Source: Alphaproteobacteria bacterium (GTDB lineage: Bacteria > Pseudomonadota > Alphaproteobacteria > MPNO01). Taken from it: a stretch of DNA of 64,000 bases. Shown one piece after another: positions 31,451 to 44,103 of the stretch. The notes beneath the pieces are model-generated. The model made no database searches. It was not told the DNA's origin and worked only from the letters and a program-made list of their open reading frames with translations. The stretch covers positions 1,536,001 to 1,600,000 of the forward strand of contig OZ219866.1 of assembly GCA_964291675.2 (NCBI GenBank). The letters run 5' to 3'. Position 1 is the stretch's first letter. Each line of letters opens with the position of its first letter. Made by a program: the position numbers and the translations under genes.

Positions 31451-32641
31451 ATGTCCCTGATCGCGCCCTTCCGGGCGATCCTGCCGGCGCCGCAGCATGC
31501 CGGGGCCGTCGCCGCGCCGCCCTATGACGTGCTGTCGAGGGCCGAGGCGCGCGCCCGCGCGGCCGGCAACCGGCTGAGCTTTCTGCACGTGTCGCGCCCG
31601 GAGATCGGCCTCGCCTGCGGGGTCGCGGCGGACGATTCCGCAGTCTACGCCAGGGCGGCCGAGACCATGGCGCGGCTGCTTGCCGAGGGAACGCTCGGCC
31701 GCGCCGAACGGGCCAGGCTCTATGTCTACCGCGTCGAGATCGACGGCCACCGGCAGACCGGCATCGCCGGCGCGGCGCCGGTCGCGGCGCTCGCCGATGG
31801 CCGTATCCGCCGCCACGAGCTCACCCGGCCCGCCAAGGTCGCCGACCGCGCGCGCCAGATCGAGGCGGTCGGCGCCCATACCGGCCCGGTCATGCTCGCC
31901 CACCGCGACGACCCGGCGCTGGCCGAGGCGGTGGCGGCGGTGGCGGCGGGACCCCCGGCGCTGGAGGCCGGGATCGACGGGGTCGCCCATTCGGTGTGGG
32001 CAGCCGACGGCGCGGCGGGCGCGGCGCTGCTCCGCGCGGCGGAGCGGCTGGAGACGCTCTACATCGCCGACGGCCACCACCGCTCGGAGGCCGCGTCCCG
32101 GGTCGGGGCGCGCTTTCTCGCGATCGGCTTTCCCGCCGGCGAGATGCGCATCCTCGACTACAACCGGGTGGTCCGCGACCTCGCCGGGCGCTCGCCGGAC
32201 GAGTTCCTGGCGGCGCTCCGGGACGGCTTCGCCGTCGCCCCGTCCGACCGGCCGGTCCGCCCCGAACGCCCGGGCCGGTTCGGGCTCTACTTGGCGGGGC
32301 GGTGGTACGGCCTCGCCCTCGAAACGGCGCAGGCGGCGGACGGCGACCCGGCGGCGGCGCTCGATGCCGAGATCCTGTCGCGCGCCGTGCTCGCTCCCCT
32401 GCTCGGCATCGACGATCCGCGCAGCGACCCGAGGATCGACTTCGTCGGCGGCGGCCGCGGCCTCGACGGGCTCGCCGCCCGGGTCGATTCGGGCGAGATG
32501 GCGGCCGCCTTCGCGCTCCGCCCGGTCTCCCTCGACCGGCTCTTCGCGGTCGCCGACGCCGGGCGGGCGATGCCGCCCAAATCGACCTGGTTCGAGCCCA
32601 AGCTCGCCGACGGGCTGCTGTCGCTGCCGCTGGAAGGCTGA
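31451..32641 (+). CDS. DUF1015 family protein
   Basis: PPYDV, HELT, YIADGHHR, MPPKSTWFEPK. Confidence 0.9.
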   Translation: MSLIAPFRAILPAPQHAGAVAAPPYDVLSRAEARARAAGNRLSFLHVSRPEIGLACGVAADDSAVYARAAETMARLLAEGTLGRAERARLYVYRVEIDGHRQTGIAGAAPVAALADGRIRRHELTRPAKVADRARQIEAVGAHTGPVMLAHRDDPALAEAVAAVAAGPPALEAGIDGVAHSVWAADGAAGAALLRAAERLETLYIADGHHRSEAASRVGARFLAIGFPAGEMRILDYNRVVRDLAGRSPDEFLAALRDGFAVAPSDRPVRPERPGRFGLYLAGRWYGLALETAQAADGDPAAALDAEILSRAVLAPLLGIDDPRSDPRIDFVGGGRGLDGLAARVDSGEMAAAFALRPVSLDRLFAVADAGRAMPPKSTWFEPKLADGLLSLPLEG

Positions 32642-32642
32642 G

Positions 32643-32849
32643 ATGGCGGTGCCCGACGAGACCTACGATCCGATCGAAGGGTGCTGCAACGCCTGCCGCC
32701 ACTACGACCCGACCGCCTTCGGCGGGGCCAATTACGGCCATTGCCGGCGCTACCCGCCGGTCGCCGTCGAGACAAGCGGCGGGCTGAAGCGCGGGGTCTG
32801 GCCGGTGGTGGGCTATGACGACAGCTGCGGCGAGTACCGCCCGGCCTGA
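32643..32849 (+). CDS. Small Cys-rich (metal-binding) protein
   Basis: CxxC..CRRYPP..WPVV..CGEY; starts 1 nt after the DUF1015 stop. Confidence 0.65.
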   Translation: MAVPDETYDPIEGCCNACRHYDPTAFGGANYGHCRRYPPVAVETSGGLKRGVWPVVGYDDSCGEYRPA

Positions 32850-33087
32850 CCGCCTAATGTTTCACTTTAATGAAGCAACGTGCCGGGCGTTGAATGGGAG
32901 CCAAGAAACGGCGGAATCCGGGCCCTTATGGCCTTTCAGTCACAGGGTGCAGGAAATTCGATAGCTCGATATCAACACTATCTCATCGAGTCGACCCGGC
33001 CATGGACGGCGTATTCCCGGAATTTCACCCCCGAATTCGACAATATCTAGCGCACCGTGATGATTTTCTCCCGTCGCGGTCGATTGG

Positions 33088-33392
33088 GTATTCGTTCGGG
33101 CGAGCCGTGCTGGACCGGACGCTGGGAGGAGGTCCACGCGCCGAATCGCGCAGAAGTCTGGCGTTTGGACGCTCGGAACACGCATCAGGTGGGCCATCTC
33201 CACGGCTCGACCGAACGATTACGATTCCGGCGATCGTCTGCGCGCCGCGATCGCACCGTATTCGTTCGGGCGGGCCGTGCTGTTCCAGCTGCCTAGAAGA
33301 GGTCGATGCGCCGAAATACGCAGAAATCCGCCGTCCTGGCGCACGGAACACGCAGATTGCCGACCGGCTCCACGGCCCGCTCGAACGAATAC
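33088..33392 (+). repeat. Tandem pair of 135-nt structured non-coding units (period 170 bp)
   Basis: 33088-33222 and 33258-33392 align without gaps (99/135 identical by hand count); each is closed by a 22-bp inverted repeat. Confidence 0.85.
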
Positions 33393-33574
33393 ATCGCGCC
33401 CCGGAGGGTCGGCGCCGAACCTCCTTTCCCGGGCCTCTCGCGGCGCCTCCATCCGTGACCGTACCCAAGGGCGTTTGGTCGTGACCGGAGGCCGCCGCGC
33501 GTCCGACCGATCACGGTGTCCTCCGGTCGACTTCAAGCCACGCTAGGCGTCATGCGGGACCGCAGCCCGCGGCG

Positions 33575-33775
33575 GTCGACAATGTTCTAGACGCCGGCGA
33601 TTTCCTCCGCCAGCACCTTCGAGGCGGTGCGCTCGGACTCCGAGCCGACCACGCTCCAGAACTCCACCGTACCCTGCTTCACCGTCACGCGGGTGGTGCC
33701 GTAGCCCGCCTAGGGCTGTTCCGACAAGGCCCTGTCGATCTCCCGGCGGATCGACTCGTCGTCTGCGTCGCTGTC
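33575..33775 (-). pseudogene. BON-domain remnant
   Basis: DESIRREIDRAL..RVTVKQGTV....V.SESERTA..VLAEEIAGV with two in-frame TAG stops. Confidence 0.6.
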
Positions 33776-33862
33776 AATCGCCGCAGTGCCCGCCGAAGCG
33801 ATGTGTCGGATGATGTTGGCACGGCTGATCGGCCCTACCACATCGCCGTCGTCGACGATCGG

Positions 33863-33965
33863 CACGCCGTTCCGGCGACCGTGGTCGAGCGGCTAGCCGT
33901 GGATGGTTGCAGCCAGGGACGCGGGCTCGGCGGCACCCTGCTGATAGACGCGATCCGCCACATGG
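33863..33965 (+). pseudogene. GNAT acetyltransferase (toxin-like) fragment
   Basis: VPATVVERLAVD..QGRGLGGTLLIDA (acetyl-CoA binding motif A). Confidence 0.55.
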
Positions 33966-34209
33966 TACGGTGGGGCAGACGATCGCCACGATCATGGAAC
34001 TTTGAACCCGCGCAGCCCGGAGGAGGCGGGGCGATGATCAGACGGCGCGTTCATCCGGGGCTGCCGGCATGCCCTCCGTCGGAACGTCGGCGACCCCTCA
34101 TGTCCCGACCGCGAATCATCGGCAAGTCGCTGCTGACCCGGCAAATTGCATCGAAATAACCGGCATTTCACGCTCTCTTACCCTTGATTTCGCGGGGTCC
34201 GTCACCATA

Positions 34210-34226
34210 ATTAGAATGGTTCTAAT
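34210..34226. promoter_or_regulatory. Iron control element (Irr box) upstream of dps
   Basis: ATTAGAA-TGG-TTCTAAT palindrome resembling the TTTAGAA-N3-TTCTAAA ICE consensus. Confidence 0.7.
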
Positions 34227-34228
34227 AA

Positions 34229-34738
34229 ATGGGCAAACCTGTCATGTTCCAGAATTTGCATCCCACGAAGATCGACATTCCCGACAACGTGCGCGCAGCG
34301 ATGATCGACGTCCTCAATGCCCGGCTGGCCGACGCCGTCGATCTCTCGAGCCAGATGAAGCAGGCCCATTGGAACGTTAGGGGGCCCGCGTTCATCGCGC
34401 TGCATGAGCTGTTCGATACCGTCCATAACGCGGTGCAGGTCCATGCTGACGATTTGGCGGAGCGCATCGCGGCGCTCGGCGGCACGGCGCGCGGCACCTC
34501 CGCTGTAGCCGCGTCCGCTTCGACCCTGCCCGAGTATCCGACGGAGATCTACGCCGGCAGCCACCATGTGGACGCGGTGAGCGCCGCCCTTGCGGCGTTC
34601 GGCAAGGAGATTCGCGCGGCGATCGCACGGGCCGGCGAGGTGGGCGATGCGGATACCGAAGACCTGTTCGTCGGCGTTTCGCGCGACATCGACAAGAATC
34701 TGTGGCTGGTGGAAGCCCACGCCCAGGCGGAAAGCTGA
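34229..34738 (+). CDS. dps: DNA starvation/stationary-phase protection protein (start 34229 or 34244)
   Basis: KQAHWNVRG..FIALHELFD, DDLAERI, DK.LW. Confidence 0.93.
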   Translation: MGKPVMFQNLHPTKIDIPDNVRAAMIDVLNARLADAVDLSSQMKQAHWNVRGPAFIALHELFDTVHNAVQVHADDLAERIAALGGTARGTSAVAASASTLPEYPTEIYAGSHHVDAVSAALAAFGKEIRAAIARAGEVGDADTEDLFVGVSRDIDKNLWLVEAHAQAES

Positions 34739-34879
34739 TCTTCCTCGTCGGAGACCCATCCTGCGCACGTCGCCGGACGTTTACGCAGAACCCCCGACAC
34801 GAGCAATGTCAGAGCCGACAGTGAGGCGATAATTGCCTGCCCGCGCTCATCAACACGCATCGCCTTGCGGTGCTTCCAG

Positions 34880-35265
34880 CCGATACCCGACATGAAGCCG
34901 GACATGACCACGTGAGGCGTGTAGGCCACGAAACGTCCGATCCTCGATACGCCCGGTAGCACCCGCAAGAGGCCCGCCAGCACGACGACCGTCAGGGCTT
35001 TGGAGAGGCTGTCCGCATGGCTGGTCAGGACGACCGCCATAGCGACGCTCATCGGCGCCGTCGGGCCGGATATCTGCGAGCGCGTGCCGCCGAACACGGA
35101 TGCGAAGAAACCGACCGCGATGGCGCGATAGAGCCCGGCTGCCGCACCCATCCCCGAGGCGATGCCGAAACCGACGGAAACGGGCAGCGCCACCACCATT
35201 GAGGTGATGCCGCCGAAGACATTGCCGCGCAGAGTGTCGAGGTCGTAGTTCAGGCGGAACGATAC
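34880..35265 (-). pseudogene. SulP/SLC26 transporter N-terminal fragment
   Basis: GGITSMVVALP..FGIASG, FGGTRSQISGPTAPM, SGFMSGIG, then similarity is lost. Confidence 0.8.
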
Positions 35266-35636
35266 ATCCCTCTCGCGCGCCGCCCGTTATCTCGGGCACT
35301 GGCATCATCCACGGTAGAGGACGCGTTCGCCAAGCGGCTGCACGGGCCGGCAGTATTGCGGACGAATCGCGGCGAAGGCTGTGATCTGCGGGGCCGACAC
35401 CGAGAGCGGCGCTGCAGCGAGGCCAGCTCGTGTACTCCCGGACCCGGCAGCGCTCCATGCATCTCTGAAACGCTCGCCCCGCCACGCGGCTTCGTTGCGA
35501 GCGGACGCGGGCATTGGACCGCGGATCCTGTGGTCGATCCGCACCGTGTCCCTGTGCGCCTCCGCGCCGTCCAGGAGCGCGGGAAGCGCGGGTGGGTGCA
35601 TCGTTCACGACACTCGCCGCTTCTCCCCCACGGCGC

Positions 35637-36680
35637 TCACAGGCTCCGGGTGGGCCCCCTGTCGCGGGACCGGGACTGCGTGCGGTACGCCGACGAGAAC
35701 CGCTCCAGCCGGGAGACCGCTGTCCGCAGGCGCTCGCGCCCGTCTTCGATGCGGTCGATATGCGCGCCGTGGGCCGCGCGGTCGTCGAGGATCGCGCGGC
35801 CCTCCCGCAGCAGGATTTCGTTGCGCTCCAGCCAGATCGGCCAGGAGCGCTGCTCCTGCCGCGGGACGTCGTGGTTGCGCGCGCGATGGGAGATGGTGCG
35901 ATAGCGCAGCCAGTGGCGCTCCACGTCGCGCAGGAAGTCGCGCACCCGGTCGCGCGCCGCGGCGTGCGCCCGGTACTGCCCGACGATCTCCCCGAGACGC
36001 GCGCGCGTCTCGGCGGCATGCGCCTCGCTCCCTGTGAAGGCGGCGAAGCGCTCGACCAGCGCACCGGCGCCGTCGAGCTCGAAGCGATGCTCGTCCTGCC
36101 TCCCGGCCCGGAGGAGGTGTGCGCGCCAGTCGCGCCGGAGCTGGCGATAGGCCGCGTACGAAAGGTCCGGCCCGGGTGCCTCGCTCCGGGCGGGCGTCTC
36201 GGCCGGCGGCGGGACGGGGGCGGCGTCCCTGCCGGCATTCTGGTGTGTCCGCGCAGCGGGCTGGTCGGGACGGGCGGTCTCCGAGGCGGATGCGGTCTGC
36301 CGTGCGGGCTCGGGAGCCGGTTCCCCGTCCCGGCGCGCCCGCTCGCTCTCCTCCTCCGCGTTCTGACGCGCGTGCGCGGCCCTGGCGGTGGCGGAGCGCA
36401 GGTAGCTGCCGGCGCGGGCATGCACGTCGTGCAGCTCCCGCAGCTCGCCGTCGCCGATGCCGGCGCGCTCCGCGAGAAGCCGGTCGAACACCCGGGGCCG
36501 GGCCCTGAAGGACGCGGCCTGCCTCATCAGCGCGCCGTGGCGGTCGAGGGTCTCGCGGAAGGCGGGACTGAGCGCGACGGTCTCGCCCTCGTCCCGGACG
36601 CGCGCGCGCAGCTCGTCGCAGGCCGCCATGACCTCGCTGCGCTCGGCCGCGAAGGCGTCCACGGCCGCGCCATGGCGCCA
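35637..36680 (-). pseudogene. Possible relaxase/mobilisation protein C-terminal remnant
   Basis: Helical R/A/E-rich ORF ending SRSRDRGPTRSL, a tail typical of Mob/TraA proteins; no HUH motif seen. Confidence 0.35.
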
Positions 36681-38870: not shown

Positions 38871-39313
38871 TGTCGGGTGTCCGATCCTTTGCTAGATGGA
38901 GACCGCCGAGTCATCGGCATAGTGTACTGATGGCAGCCTCCATCGGTGCGCCAGAGGCGGGGCAACCCGGCACGGTTGCCCTGGCTCGCTTCCAGTCCGA
39001 AGCGTAAGCTCGTCAGGGACCGCCGCGTCACCAAGGTGGCCAGCGTCCCATATTCCGGACTCGGCGGGTGCCGGGCCGGCGTCAACACTTCTCGGAGAGA
39101 AAGTCCCGACTGTTCGCCAGGCCGGGGAGCTACCCCGTGCCGGGTCAAGGGCTGTTCTATTCAGATGCCGTAATGGGGCTTGGCGCTCTGCGGCATCGTC
39201 GGAGCTTGTGGCGATATCGGTGATTCGGGTGTCGTTGCCCTTACACGCTAGGCGTGTTCACGGGGTCTTGCCGCAAGGCGCGCCCCAATCCCTAGGAAGG
39301 AAAGGGCAACGAC

Positions 39314-40354
39314 ATGGAAGTCTATATCGGGCTGGATGTATCGCTGGCAAGCACGGCGATCTGCGTTCTCGGCGAGAAGGGGAAGCTGGTGACGGAGGCG
39401 CGGGTTGCCAGCGCTCCGGAGTCTCTGGTGTCGTTCATGCGCGAGCTGCCATACAGAATCGCGGCGATCGGCCTCGAGGCCGGTCCTCTGTCGCAATGGC
39501 TGTACAAGGGGCTGACCGAGGCCGGCTTCGAGGCCGTGCTGATGGAGACCCGGCAGGTGAAGGCGGCGCTGAAGGCGATGCCGATCAAGACCGACCGCCG
39601 GGACGCGGAGGGCATCGCGCGGCTGTTGCAGATGGGCTGGTTCCGGCCGGTGCACTGCAAGACGGTGTCGTCGCAGGAGATGCGGGCGCTGCTGAGCTCG
39701 CGCAAGTCGGTCTTGGACGTGCTCATCAAGATCGAGCTTTCGCTGCGCGGCGTGCTACGCAACTTCGGGCTCAAGCTGGGTGCAGTCTCGAAGGGCCGCT
39801 ACGAAGCCCGGGTGCGGGAGCTGATCGCCGGCAACTCGATGCTGGAGGCTGCCGCCGAACCGATCCTACGTGCGCGGGCGGCCCTGCGCCGCGAGCTGGC
39901 CGGGCTGGAGAAGCAGGTCCGCAAGCTGGCAAGTCAGGATCCGGTGTCCCGCCTCTTGATGACCATGCCTGGCGTCGGCCCGGTCGTGGCGCTGACGTTC
40001 GTGTCCGCGGTCGACGATCCCGAGCGGTTCCGGAGATCGAAGGATGTCGGCCCCTGGGTGGGGCTGACGCCGGGCCGGAACCAGTCCGGCGAACGCGATG
40101 TCGTCGGCGCGATCACCAAGGCCGGCGACGCCGGCCTGCGCACGGCGCTCTACCAGGCGGCGACGGTGATGCTGCACCGCGGGGGCCCGAACTGGCTGAA
40201 GGCCTGGGCGCTGCGCCTCGCGGTGCTGCGCGGCAGGAAGCGCGCAACCGTCGCGCTGGCCCGGCGGATCGGGGTGGTGCTTCACCGGATGTGGCGGGAC
40301 GGCACCGAGTTCCGCTTCACGCGCGAAGCGGCGATGGCGCTTCGCACGGCATAG
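39314..40354 (+). CDS. IS110-family recombinase
   Basis: IGLDVS, LEAG, KTDRRDA (DEDD), PGVGP, GLTP..QSG. Confidence 0.95.
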   Translation: MEVYIGLDVSLASTAICVLGEKGKLVTEARVASAPESLVSFMRELPYRIAAIGLEAGPLSQWLYKGLTEAGFEAVLMETRQVKAALKAMPIKTDRRDAEGIARLLQMGWFRPVHCKTVSSQEMRALLSSRKSVLDVLIKIELSLRGVLRNFGLKLGAVSKGRYEARVRELIAGNSMLEAAAEPILRARAALRRELAGLEKQVRKLASQDPVSRLLMTMPGVGPVVALTFVSAVDDPERFRRSKDVGPWVGLTPGRNQSGERDVVGAITKAGDAGLRTALYQAATVMLHRGGPNWLKAWALRLAVLRGRKRATVALARRIGVVLHRMWRDGTEFRFTREAAMALRTA

Positions 40355-40419
40355 GCGCGGCCGTGCCGTAGTGGCCGTCAACAGGAAGAGGAAGAGAGGA
40401 CCCCGCCTGAAGGTGGCGA

Positions 40420-40610
40420 TCCAACGGTGTCCCCTCGCCGGGACGCGGTTCCCGATGATGCACGTGTTGCCCGCTGTCCGCCGAACCCAATCATTGTGTT
40501 CGAGCACGCTATTCAGATCGGCACTCGGGAATCGCCCTGGACCAGGCATGATGTTGGCGGCCGACGCGCCGACCACGGACGGAAGCAAGAGCCTGGCGAC
40601 GGACACTTCC
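40420..40610 (+). ncRNA. Putative bridge/seek RNA
   Basis: Two hairpin-split loops whose strands match the target and donor junction sequences (see findings); boundaries approximate. Confidence 0.7.
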
Positions 40611-40879
40611 GGGATCGCGAGCCCTTCTCAAGACGGGAAGCTTTTCCAATCGACCGTCCCTGATCCAGAGCCGCACGACCTCCGGGAGGTCGTGAACCAC
40701 GCCTGGGGCGATACAATCCGACCCAGGCGCCGCAGCTCGTGAACGAAAAACCGAACCGAGACGGTCTGCTGTTGAAAATCGTGCTTGACGGGAAACGCCC
40801 CATTACGGAAGCGGGCGACCCGACAGAGCGGGAGCCCTAGAAGCGTTGACCGGGGAGAAGCCTAGCGCAGTGCCGGCAA

Positions 40880-42074: not shown

Positions 42075-44103
42075 GTGCTGAGGGAATCGGCGCCCTAGGC
42101 AGTCCACCCGGCAATGGGCGGACCTACCGGGAGGTGTCAGAAGCCGGCCACACTAAACCGGGAAGGCGGCCCTCGCCGGAGGCTTAGAGTGCCAGGCTAA
42201 CTGGTGGAAGGGTAGCGGGTGAAAGTCCCGCGAAACGAAAGGAGTAGCCAACCACGTTTCTCCGCGAGCCGTGCATCGTCGGCCGTGAGGCCGGGGGTGA
42301 AGCGTCGGTAGCGGTGCATGCGGGCAGGGATATTGAGCGCCGAAAACGAGATGGTCCGAAGTGCCGAGACGTTTAAGCTCGTCGAAGGCAACATCGTCCA
42401 CACCGCAATATGGCGAGGTGTGGGGGAGCTTCGCGGCGTCGGGGACCCCATGCACGCATGTAAGCCCACCACCGGGACCTGGGAGGTCTTCACACTGCCC
42501 CGATGGTCGTATCGGGGCCGCGAAGGGAAGGAGGTATCCGAAGCCTGAGATGAACGGAGTGAAGAAGTCGGACGGGGCCATAGTACCGTCGAAGCGGGCG
42601 AACAACGGGGCGCGAGCCTCTGCGGAGTCCGTGGAGGAAAGGGCCTCGACCAAGGGGAATCCGCGAAGCGAAAGCACGCGCCGGACGCAGAGCCGGGAAA
42701 GCGTGACCCAGGCCGCCGAGCGGATACGTCAAGCTGCAACGAGGAAACCGCAGGAGAAACTGACGGCGCTCCTGCATCATGTCACGCCGGACGCGCTGCG
42801 CTGGGCCTTCCACGCGCTGAAGCGGGACGCCGCGGCGGGGGTGGACGGCATGACATGGGCCGAGTACGCGAACGGGCTGGAAGAGCGGCTGCTCGACCTG
42901 CACCGGCGCGTACAGTCCGGGGCGTATCGGGCGCCGCCGGTCCGGCGGGTAGAGATACCCAAGCCGGATGGCGGGACACGACCGCTCGGCGTCGCCGCGC
43001 TGGAGGACAAGATCGTCCAGAAGGCGGTGACGGAGATCATCCTGACGCCGATCTACGAGCCGGTCTTCCTCGGCTTCAGCTACGGGTTCCGACCGGGGCG
43101 CGGGGCGCATGACGCACTCGACGCGCTTGCTGTCGCCATCAATCGGCGGAAGGTCAACTGGGTGGTCGACTGCGACATCCAAAGGTTTTTCGATTCTGTT
43201 TCGCGGGACTGGCTCGTCCGGTTCCTTGAGCACCGGATCGGGGATCGGCGGGTGATCCGGCTGATCGCCAAGTGGCTGAAAGCCGGCGTCATGGTCGATG
43301 GCCGGTGGGAGGACACGCAGCAGGGCACGCCGCAAGGGGCGATCGTCTCAGCCACGCTGGCGAACGTGTATCTGCACTATGTCCTCGACCTCTGGTTCCA
43401 TCGCAAGTGGCGGCCCGAAAGGGCAGATGGCGATGCCATCATCGTACGCTACGCCGATGATGTGGTCGTCGGCTTCCAGCGCAAGAGGGACGCGGAACGC
43501 TTCCTGCATGCGCTTGGGGAACGGCTCGGCCAGTTCGATCTGGCCCTGCATCCGGCCAAGACCCGGCTCATCGAGTTCGGCAGGTTCGCGGAAGTGGACC
43601 GCCGGGCACGGGGGCTGGGCCGCCCGGAGACGTTCGACTTCCTGGGCTTCACGCACTATTGCAGGACGACCAGGAGCGGGCAGTTCGGGCTCGGACGCAA
43701 GCCCGTTGCAAAGCGGATGAGCCGCACCCTGAAGCGCATCGCGGAGGTTCTGCGGCGGCGCAGGCACCACGACCTCCACGAGGTCGCCCGGTGGCTGGGG
43801 CGGGTAGTCAACGGATGGCTGAACTACTACGCCGTCCCGACGAGTGCCCGCTTCCTGCGAAGCTTCACCTACATCCTGAAACGGATATGGCTGAAGGCGC
43901 TGCGCCGACGGTCGCAACGGGATCGCTTCAGCTGGCAACGGCTGCAAGCCCTGGTTGACCGATACTGGCCCAAGCCATGGATCCGACACCCGTGGCCGGG
44001 GCAGCGGTTCGACGTCAAATACCCGAGGTAGGAGCCGGATGGCTTAACGGCCACGTCCGGATCTGTGCGGGGGGCGCCGGGAAACCGGCGTCCCTACCGC
44101 GAC
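42075..44103 (+). mobile_element. Group II intron (IIB, class E-like); 5' end uncertain (42075-42190)
   Basis: Domain V/VI GAGCCGGATG..GTCCGGATCTG..CCCTACCGCGAC ending in AC at 44103; GGTGAAAGTCC in domain I. Confidence 0.88.
42550..44031 (+). CDS. ltrA: Group II intron reverse transcriptase/maturase without endonuclease domain
   Basis: PKPDG.TRPLG, SYGFRPGR, GTPQG, RYADD, FDFLGF, GWLNYY, HPWP. Confidence 0.95.
   Translation: MNGVKKSDGAIVPSKRANNGARASAESVEERASTKGNPRSESTRRTQSRESVTQAAERIRQAATRKPQEKLTALLHHVTPDALRWAFHALKRDAAAGVDGMTWAEYANGLEERLLDLHRRVQSGAYRAPPVRRVEIPKPDGGTRPLGVAALEDKIVQKAVTEIILTPIYEPVFLGFSYGFRPGRGAHDALDALAVAINRRKVNWVVDCDIQRFFDSVSRDWLVRFLEHRIGDRRVIRLIAKWLKAGVMVDGRWEDTQQGTPQGAIVSATLANVYLHYVLDLWFHRKWRPERADGDAIIVRYADDVVVGFQRKRDAERFLHALGERLGQFDLALHPAKTRLIEFGRFAEVDRRARGLGRPETFDFLGFTHYCRTTRSGQFGLGRKPVAKRMSRTLKRIAEVLRRRRHHDLHEVARWLGRVVNGWLNYYAVPTSARFLRSFTYILKRIWLKALRRRSQRDRFSWQRLQALVDRYWPKPWIRHPWPGQRFDVKYPR

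Follow-up and report, generated by a model that had tools for sequence, protein, structure and literature searches.

Two repeat copies in a decayed intergenic region

The window, as we refer to the 64,000-nt stretch of DNA analysed here, contains a 740-bp intergenic stretch in which two copies of a short repeat are placed side by side. Upstream lie a DUF1015 gene (31451-32641) and, immediately after it, a small Cys-rich open reading frame (ORF) of about 68 amino acids (32643-32849, plus strand) without a Pfam match; downstream, a minus-strand CBS/BON-like pseudogene ends near 33592. The G+C content drops from about 0.77 to 0.65 around the pair. The copies form a direct repeat, D1 (33088-33222 and 33258-33392; 135 nt each, ungapped, 170 nt from start to start), in which 99 of 135 positions are identical (36 mismatches, 73% identity). 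Our direct-repeat search and mismatch count agree with a preliminary description of this DNA, which had reported an ungapped 135-nt pair 170 bp apart with 99/135 identities. The 22-bp stem that it saw closing each copy is also present, with arms that are 91% (copy A) and 95% (copy B) complementary, and two further details can be read directly in the sequence: an A-T to G-C swap between the copies (33103:33207 versus 33273:33377) and a palindrome in the linker (GCGATCG..CGATCGC). The arm motif has four matches in the window, compared with 0.31 expected. No Pfam match was found for the ORFs that overlap the 135-nt units. The features are as follows, named according to the reading that we favour.

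32853-32995, plus strand: conserved block of about 140 nt, separate from the candidate MITEs, which recurs beside family members
33082-33087, no strand: putative left remnant of the copy A target duplication, GATTGG, 2 nt apparently lost
33088-33222, plus strand: copy A, candidate non-coding MITE with IS66-type ends, 135 nt, family D1, aligned with 14 other members
33088-33109, plus strand: copy A, putative left terminal inverted repeat (inverted pair I3, 91% complementary with 33201-33222)
33201-33222, minus strand: copy A, putative right terminal inverted repeat (inverted-pair search and arm pattern)
33223-33230, no strand: right copy of the putative 8-bp target duplication of copy A, GATTCCGG
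33223-33257, no strand: linker between the copies, host DNA, 35 nt, with the GCGATCG/CGATCGC palindrome and both inner duplication copies
33250-33257, no strand: left copy of the copy B target duplication, ATCGCACC, a 7/8 match to 33393-33400
33258-33392, plus strand: copy B, candidate MITE, 135 nt, 73% identical to copy A (direct repeat and family alignment)
33258-33279, plus strand: copy B, putative left terminal inverted repeat (inverted pair I1, 95% complementary with 33371-33392)
33371-33392, minus strand: copy B, putative right terminal inverted repeat (inverted-pair search and arm pattern)
33393-33400, no strand: right copy of the copy B target duplication, ATCGCGCC

To the right of the pair, 33592-36421 (minus strand) consists of decayed genes, including the CBS/BON-like frame with in-frame stops and fragments of a sulfate permease. 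Farther along, a 1,478-nt stretch (39160-40632) has a counterpart of 86.7% identity in a different genome of the genus (L028, 1639-3112) and includes a 387-aa ORF without a Pfam match (39208-40371); it is possibly a further mobile element. A group II intron (Rfam RF02005, 170 bits) occupies 42222-44031 and contains a reverse transcriptase/maturase ORF (42361-44031). The candidate MITE pair marks the decayed, mobile-DNA-rich edge of this region of pseudogenes and a group II intron.

The same ends bound IS66-type elements

The arm sequence GTAnnCRTTC…RGCCGTG is shared by the 135-nt units and by much longer elements, and the left terminal inverted repeat of copy A fits the pattern that bounds IS66-type elements. 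We searched family genomes with the arm pattern alone and used inverted pairs, not counts; with one mismatch allowed the pattern matched in 17 of 20 family genomes, and a reversed-pattern control matched at similar rates. In family genomes these arms form inverted pairs separated by 1.4-3.9 kb, and this arm type bounds elements of 3.4-5.9 kb in related and unrelated genomes. In all three of the long elements that were tested (L059, 3,541 bp; L061, 3,394 bp; L062, 3,883 bp), an IS66 DDE transposase (PF03050, E ≤1e-52) is followed by a DruA-like PF14236 protein. These partner transposases, with the DruA-like gene next to them, are 600-830 aa in length. Their PF03050 E-values are 9.5e-52 to 6.7e-53, they score 265 and 263 bits against the NCBIfam model NF033517 ‘IS66 family transposase’ (cutoff 180), and they are about 28-29% identical to annotated plasmid IS66 transposases over 62-64% of their length. 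No ORFs of the classical tnpA/tnpB type were found in the partner elements, in which the DruA-like PF14236 gene is present instead. On the basis of a DDE transposase, an 8-bp duplication and GTAA-type termini, all read from sequence, we consider that the partner elements are a divergent or variant branch of the IS66 family.

Both ends of each long element are identical over 23-26 nt, and the differences between the ends of one long element and those of another fall at the positions that ‘co-vary’ in the 135-nt units. An 8-bp target duplication without mismatch is present around the full-length L061 (CGTGACGG), its 1,441-bp derivative L060, which has the same ends (CCGTAGGG), and a 135-nt element in the window’s own genus (L065, GCGAGACG). 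In genome G061, a 5.9-kb IS66-type element (L149 383-6288, duplication TGGCGGAC) directly adjoins a tandem MITE pair, and its arms match those of the adjoining MITEs at 21-22 of 22 positions. Beyond about 26 nt, the MITE interior shows no more than weak similarity to the ends of the full-length elements sampled. This counts against the MITE reading and gives no sign that the unit is a simple internal-deletion derivative of any element recovered.

Two candidates were set aside. A 4.5-kb segment between 1-mismatch arms (L063) encodes pentapeptide-repeat and DUF3800 proteins, has no transposase or duplication and was not counted, and a 475-aa ORF in L060, without a Pfam or NCBIfam match, was taken as non-coding or spurious.

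The PF14236 domain, a former DUF, is associated with Druantia defence. In four elements (L059, L061, L062 and L149) it has a gene of its own, which follows that of the IS66-type transposase, and a DruA-like domain is also fused to the N terminus of a Tn5/IS4-like transposase (L149:966-3605, minus strand). Our literature search for DUF4338/DruA with IS66 found no paper that joins the two. At another locus (L018, G010:C1:3665056 onward), 9 nt separate a degenerate family member of about 124 nt from the end of the full-length IS66-type element that comes after it; the short unit has the same 8-9-mer on its two sides, which is another side-by-side arrangement.

Distribution, target duplications and arrays

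At the level of BLAST, the window genome has this locus alone, plus a shortened 102-nt relative on the other contig. A BLAST search of one unit against 61 relatives returned one real, partial family match (G006); those in G015 and G030 look like coding sequence and were rejected as family members, and that in G056 is 19 nt long. A covariance model (R1; three sequences with an RNAalifold structure, and a strand preference that is partly by construction) detected two full-length copies in each of three further genomes of the genus (G004, G005 and G006), and any match at E ≤0.01 in 7 of 20 family genomes; copy A, which is one of the R1 seeds, scores 140.9 bits by construction. Copies per genome in the window’s genus number 1-3. 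Among them the outer arm sequence varies widely and complementarity is kept, as in G005, where GTATCCGTTCCGTTTGGCCGTG has a perfect complement; viewed by itself, this pattern resembles RNA covariation. No flanking duplications were found at the same-genus copies G006_C15, G004_C3 and G004_C2.

A scan of the genomes of 185,579 species with the pattern of arms plus spacing returned 58 loci, and 58 matches were left after those too near a locus end were dropped and duplicates were removed. Two arms (at least 17/22 complementary) are present in 45 of these, at a length of 134-144 nt, and the other 13 are armless chance matches, mostly to one conserved Streptomyces stretch. The two-armed elements include 22 with flanking duplications of 8/8, one with 7/8 and two with 6/8; the 13 armless controls include none at 7/8 or better. 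The preliminary description had named dispersed copies with target-site duplications in advance as an observation that would speak against a new RNA, and such copies are found in other genomes. By record title, the hosts include Alphaproteobacteria, Paracoccaceae, Gammaproteobacteria, Terriglobia, Vicinamibacteria, Binatia and ‘Candidatus Versatilivorator’ metagenome-assembled genomes. There are two interior types among the scan elements, each at 134-144 nt, and the window’s type occurs with perfect duplications in L086, L096, L102 and L108. G061 contains at least 19 full-length copies at 92-100% identity among the 40 of 82 candidates that were scored. The plasmid collection contained no match to the 135-nt units.

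Tandem MITE pairs were seen again in L084, L107 and G061. In L107 an identical 8-mer stands before, between and after the two copies, which suggests that a duplicated target was struck again; such re-use of a duplicated target suggests a simple reason for the tandem arrays. The arrays in L107, L084 and L149 (90-6288) have the order duplication-MITE-duplication-MITE-duplication(-IS), with 8-mers that are the same or overlap. In one genome, a number of the duplications are similar to GTCCGCCA/TGGCGGAC; this points to a possible target preference, with the preferred site recreated by the duplication.

Traces of insertion around the window copies

The flanks of copy B (ATCGCACC/ATCGCGCC) are identical at 7 of 8 positions, and those of copy A (GATTGG/GATTCCGG) at 6 of 8 with a 2-nt gap. 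An RNA-library contig from a relative, in a metatranscriptome run, omits 33066-33221, with 15 other letters between, and resumes at 33222. Read with its 15 intervening letters, it appears to be the uninterrupted target (empty site) of copy A; it is a single contig of low depth (4.4) with 31 letters on its short side, and the relative comes from another sample.

The interior of copy A is 66% identical to that of copy B and 71% identical to that of a copy in another genome. The ‘constant blocks’ and ‘variable segments’ of the preliminary description are thus the uneven divergence of two family members. Decay of the arms and duplications of A and B since insertion is small. Given that the interior of A is no closer to B than to a copy in another genome, and that the arms and duplications have decayed so little, we infer that A and B arose by two independent, old insertions of diverged family members rather than by duplication at this site. 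In the window genome, transposases reach at most 27% identity to the partner type, and a search for long elements bounded by these arms found none; with no cognate transposase in the host genome, the copies are probably fossils that are immobile now.

Identity of the units

We consider that the window units are a tandem pair of IS66-type MITEs, at a probability of roughly 0.92. Each unit is 135 nt long, has no coding capacity and ends in 22-nt terminal inverted repeats, and the family as a whole has target duplications, ends shared with a transposase-bearing element and amplified, dispersed copies. The MITE pair that the preliminary description listed as one of its alternatives is therefore the option upheld, by the shared IS66-type ends and the 8-bp duplications. 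The low copy number in the window’s genus, the divergence of the copies and their imperfect duplications count against this reading. The interior type is recognizable across phyla at a near-fixed 134-144 nt, which hints at some constraint beyond transposition.

Under the proposed mechanism, which follows from the family, a transposase supplied in trans by a full-length element is predicted to bind both ends of a unit; it would then cut the element out or copy it, and insertion would duplicate 8 bp of the target. Further hits on that duplicated target, or on sequence beside a resident copy, would make copies accumulate side by side. The ‘stem’ would be the two putative transposase-binding ends, and the ‘compensatory’ changes would arise as the two ends of each element match the transposase of their own lineage.

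A conserved block next to the MITEs

The conserved block of about 140 nt at 32853-32995 has the sequence CCTAATGTTTCAC…TGCAGGAAAT…CGATATCAACACTATCTCA. It is intergenic and starts right after the stop codons of unrelated genes, with copies elsewhere at G004:C5:133487-133622, G002:C60:25537-25678 (minus strand) and G009:C3:47102-47213. Six of its seven copies are followed, 25-100 nt farther on, by a MITE or IS end of this family, in either orientation. Rfam gave no match for 32853-32995. Metatranscriptome contigs cover the block more deeply (20-52) than the MITEs (1.5-9); the public runs, in which X2 had a small share, consist of contigs that give no information on transcript ends, strand or level, and their uncovered parts carry no meaning. 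Candidate roles for the block are those of a small RNA, a promoter cassette and an insertion hot spot.

Alternatives to a transposon origin

The headline of the preliminary description was a new structured non-coding RNA or DNA-site array with compensatory changes. We regard a structured RNA as very unlikely; it would be guide-like or aptamer-like, perhaps a former MITE that now serves as an RNA gene, and the 22-bp stem would close a functional fold with variable segments. Whole units fold better than shuffles on both strands (z -4.5 to -5.5), as such an RNA would, but the 91-nt interiors alone are like shuffles in both copies and on both strands (z -0.79, -0.31, -1.12 and -0.15), so the arms account for all of the fold signal. 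The strands fold equally well: copy A gives -68.7 (+) and -64.2 (-) and copy B gives -68.7 (+) and -69.8 (-), so that by energy neither strand is favoured, contrary to the earlier remark that G-U pairs favour the plus strand. Pairing counts and RNAalifold were based on a 15-member alignment of diverse copies, and the counted structure comprised the arms, the inner helix of the preliminary description and two hairpins. In this structure, pairing is kept in 92.5% and 98.7% of cells for the arms, as against 66%, 58% and 74% for the inner helices; RNAalifold retained the arms alone, and no covariation-supported helix beyond the transposon ends was found in this alignment. The inner-helix swap from C-G to G-C reported between the copies (33135:33191 versus 33305:33361) is readable in the window but does not generalize to the family, in which the pair (columns 64/124) is GC in 4 members, CG in 1 and unpaired in 10.

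Double changes occur in 9/17 pairs of the outer arm segment (helix 1), and the few in the interior hairpins are a point in favour of an RNA. Because the same ends co-vary on transposons of 3.4-5.9 kb, however, arm covariation is not evidence of RNA pairing, and the ‘compensatory’ changes of the headline are those of terminal inverted repeats. The recurrence across phyla of the interior motifs GGAGG, CGCCGAA and CAGAAATCCG also favours an RNA. Against it, copies occur in either orientation relative to adjoining sequence, including the conserved block and flanking genes, and neighbouring genes differ between loci. The existence of low-depth metatranscriptome contigs over the region would fit an RNA gene, but their depth over the units is well below that over the upstream block, and DNA carry-over is possible. 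Rfam searches of the whole window at gathering thresholds and of 32850-33600 at E ≤10 returned no family match, only chance miRNA or snoRNA hairpins below threshold, in line with the earlier remark that no recognized riboswitch or tRNA is matched.

An invertible DNA switch, in which the 91-bp segment flips between the 22-bp inverted repeats, is in our judgement highly improbable. It would explain why, from locus to locus, the unit faces either way relative to the conserved block, and why 33085 and 33216 are linked on opposite strands in an RNA-library contig from a relative, the short side of which has 68 letters. That joint is compatible with an inverted copy in a relative, and the flanking 8-bp duplications make insertion in either orientation the simpler account. 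No recombinase gene was found among the neighbours tested, a segment of 91 bp is very short for recombinase synapsis, and no opposite-strand joint was found in X1, the run that holds the window itself. An X1 contig of depth 2 does ‘go back 160’ between copies A and B, a joint that is probably repeat confusion.

To an integron attC-type or similar folded-strand recombination site, which the preliminary description had offered as an alternative, we assign next to no probability. The units resemble attC sites in their imperfect hairpin, length and few unpaired bases. The core motifs of attC have the order AAC…GTT (R''-L''…L'-R'), whereas the paired motifs here read GTT…AAC on either strand; the 35-nt linker has no cassette ORF, none of the neighbours tested proved to be an integrase gene, and the family is scattered as single copies with 8-bp duplications. 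A short protein-coding repeat on the minus strand of both copies (VE..(L/M)RVP....T.DFC..RR.DL.), suggested by peptides that look similar by eye over about 26 codons, was rejected on the flat distribution of A/B mismatches over codon phases (10/13/13, no periodicity); the similarity follows from nucleotide identity, the frame meets a stop codon in G006_C15, and other members carry a 1-nt indel and 6-10-nt insertions.

Possible non-random insertion and wider meaning

A broader reading joins several of these observations, and we hold it to be unlikely, though worth stating. The IS66-type, DruA-associated branch and its MITEs of about 135 nt would insert non-randomly, homing to a freshly duplicated target or to the flank of resident copies, so that arrays of the order duplication-MITE-duplication-MITE-duplication-IS are built, and in the window’s genus repeatedly 25-100 nt past the block at 32853-32995, which would be a small transcribed element or a safe-harbour site; the MITE interior would be a functional module. 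If so, the fixed length and the interior motifs shared across phyla would not be neutral filler but the mark of, for example, subterminal binding sites for the DruA-like protein, or of a hairpin RNA or terminator that was exapted. The block, the interior motifs, the near-constant length, the weak similarity of the interior to the long elements’ ends and the inverted joint leave the classification as MITEs unchanged, with a small residual chance of an added function.

A MITE family of a DruA-carrying, divergent IS66 branch that extends across several phyla is apparently undescribed: a literature search for IS66-derived MITEs found no description of this family, with ISfinder outside the comparison. 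The case is also a caution, as transposon terminal inverted repeats that co-vary between lineages, together with strong fold z-scores, mimic structured RNA. Two observations discriminate quickly: the same ‘stem’ bounding kilobase-long elements, and 8-mers flanking dispersed copies.

Comparison with known systems

Integron attC sites are imperfect palindromes of similar length that are sometimes arrayed; the window units differ from them in core order, in the lack of cassettes and integrase, and in the dispersal of the family with 8-bp duplications. REP/BIME and rhizobial RIME-type repeats are intergenic, palindromic and sometimes tandem in alphaproteobacterial genomes. To our knowledge they have no defined transposon ends with target duplications, whereas the ends of the window units are those of a transposase-bearing element.

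The classical IS66 organization is tnpA-tnpB-tnpC. The partner elements differ from it in carrying one long transposase and a DruA-like PF14236 gene, and the window units differ in carrying no gene. Published accounts describe inverted repeats of 22/20 and 35/26 with 8-bp direct repeats for the IS66-family elements ISPpa5a and ISPpa7 (PMC3281130), GTGAC/GTAAC termini with an 8-bp direct repeat for ISDge4, and single-ORF, ISBst12-type groups within the IS66 family (PMC12898284). The three elements and the present family are alike in termini that start with GTAA or GTA, in inverted repeats of about 20-35 bp and in the 8-bp duplication.

The closest likeness is to bacterial MITEs. The copies in the window genome differ from these in being few, old and without a partner transposase, and the family is set apart by its IS66-type ends and 8-bp duplications. 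Bacterial MITEs, of which MITEAba12 and MITEPsy1/2 are examples, are about 100-300 bp long, non-coding and bounded by the terminal inverted repeats of an autonomous IS. They have target duplications, can reach many near-identical copies in bursts within some genomes and may form hairpins that mimic an RNA gene, and in all of these respects the present family is like them.
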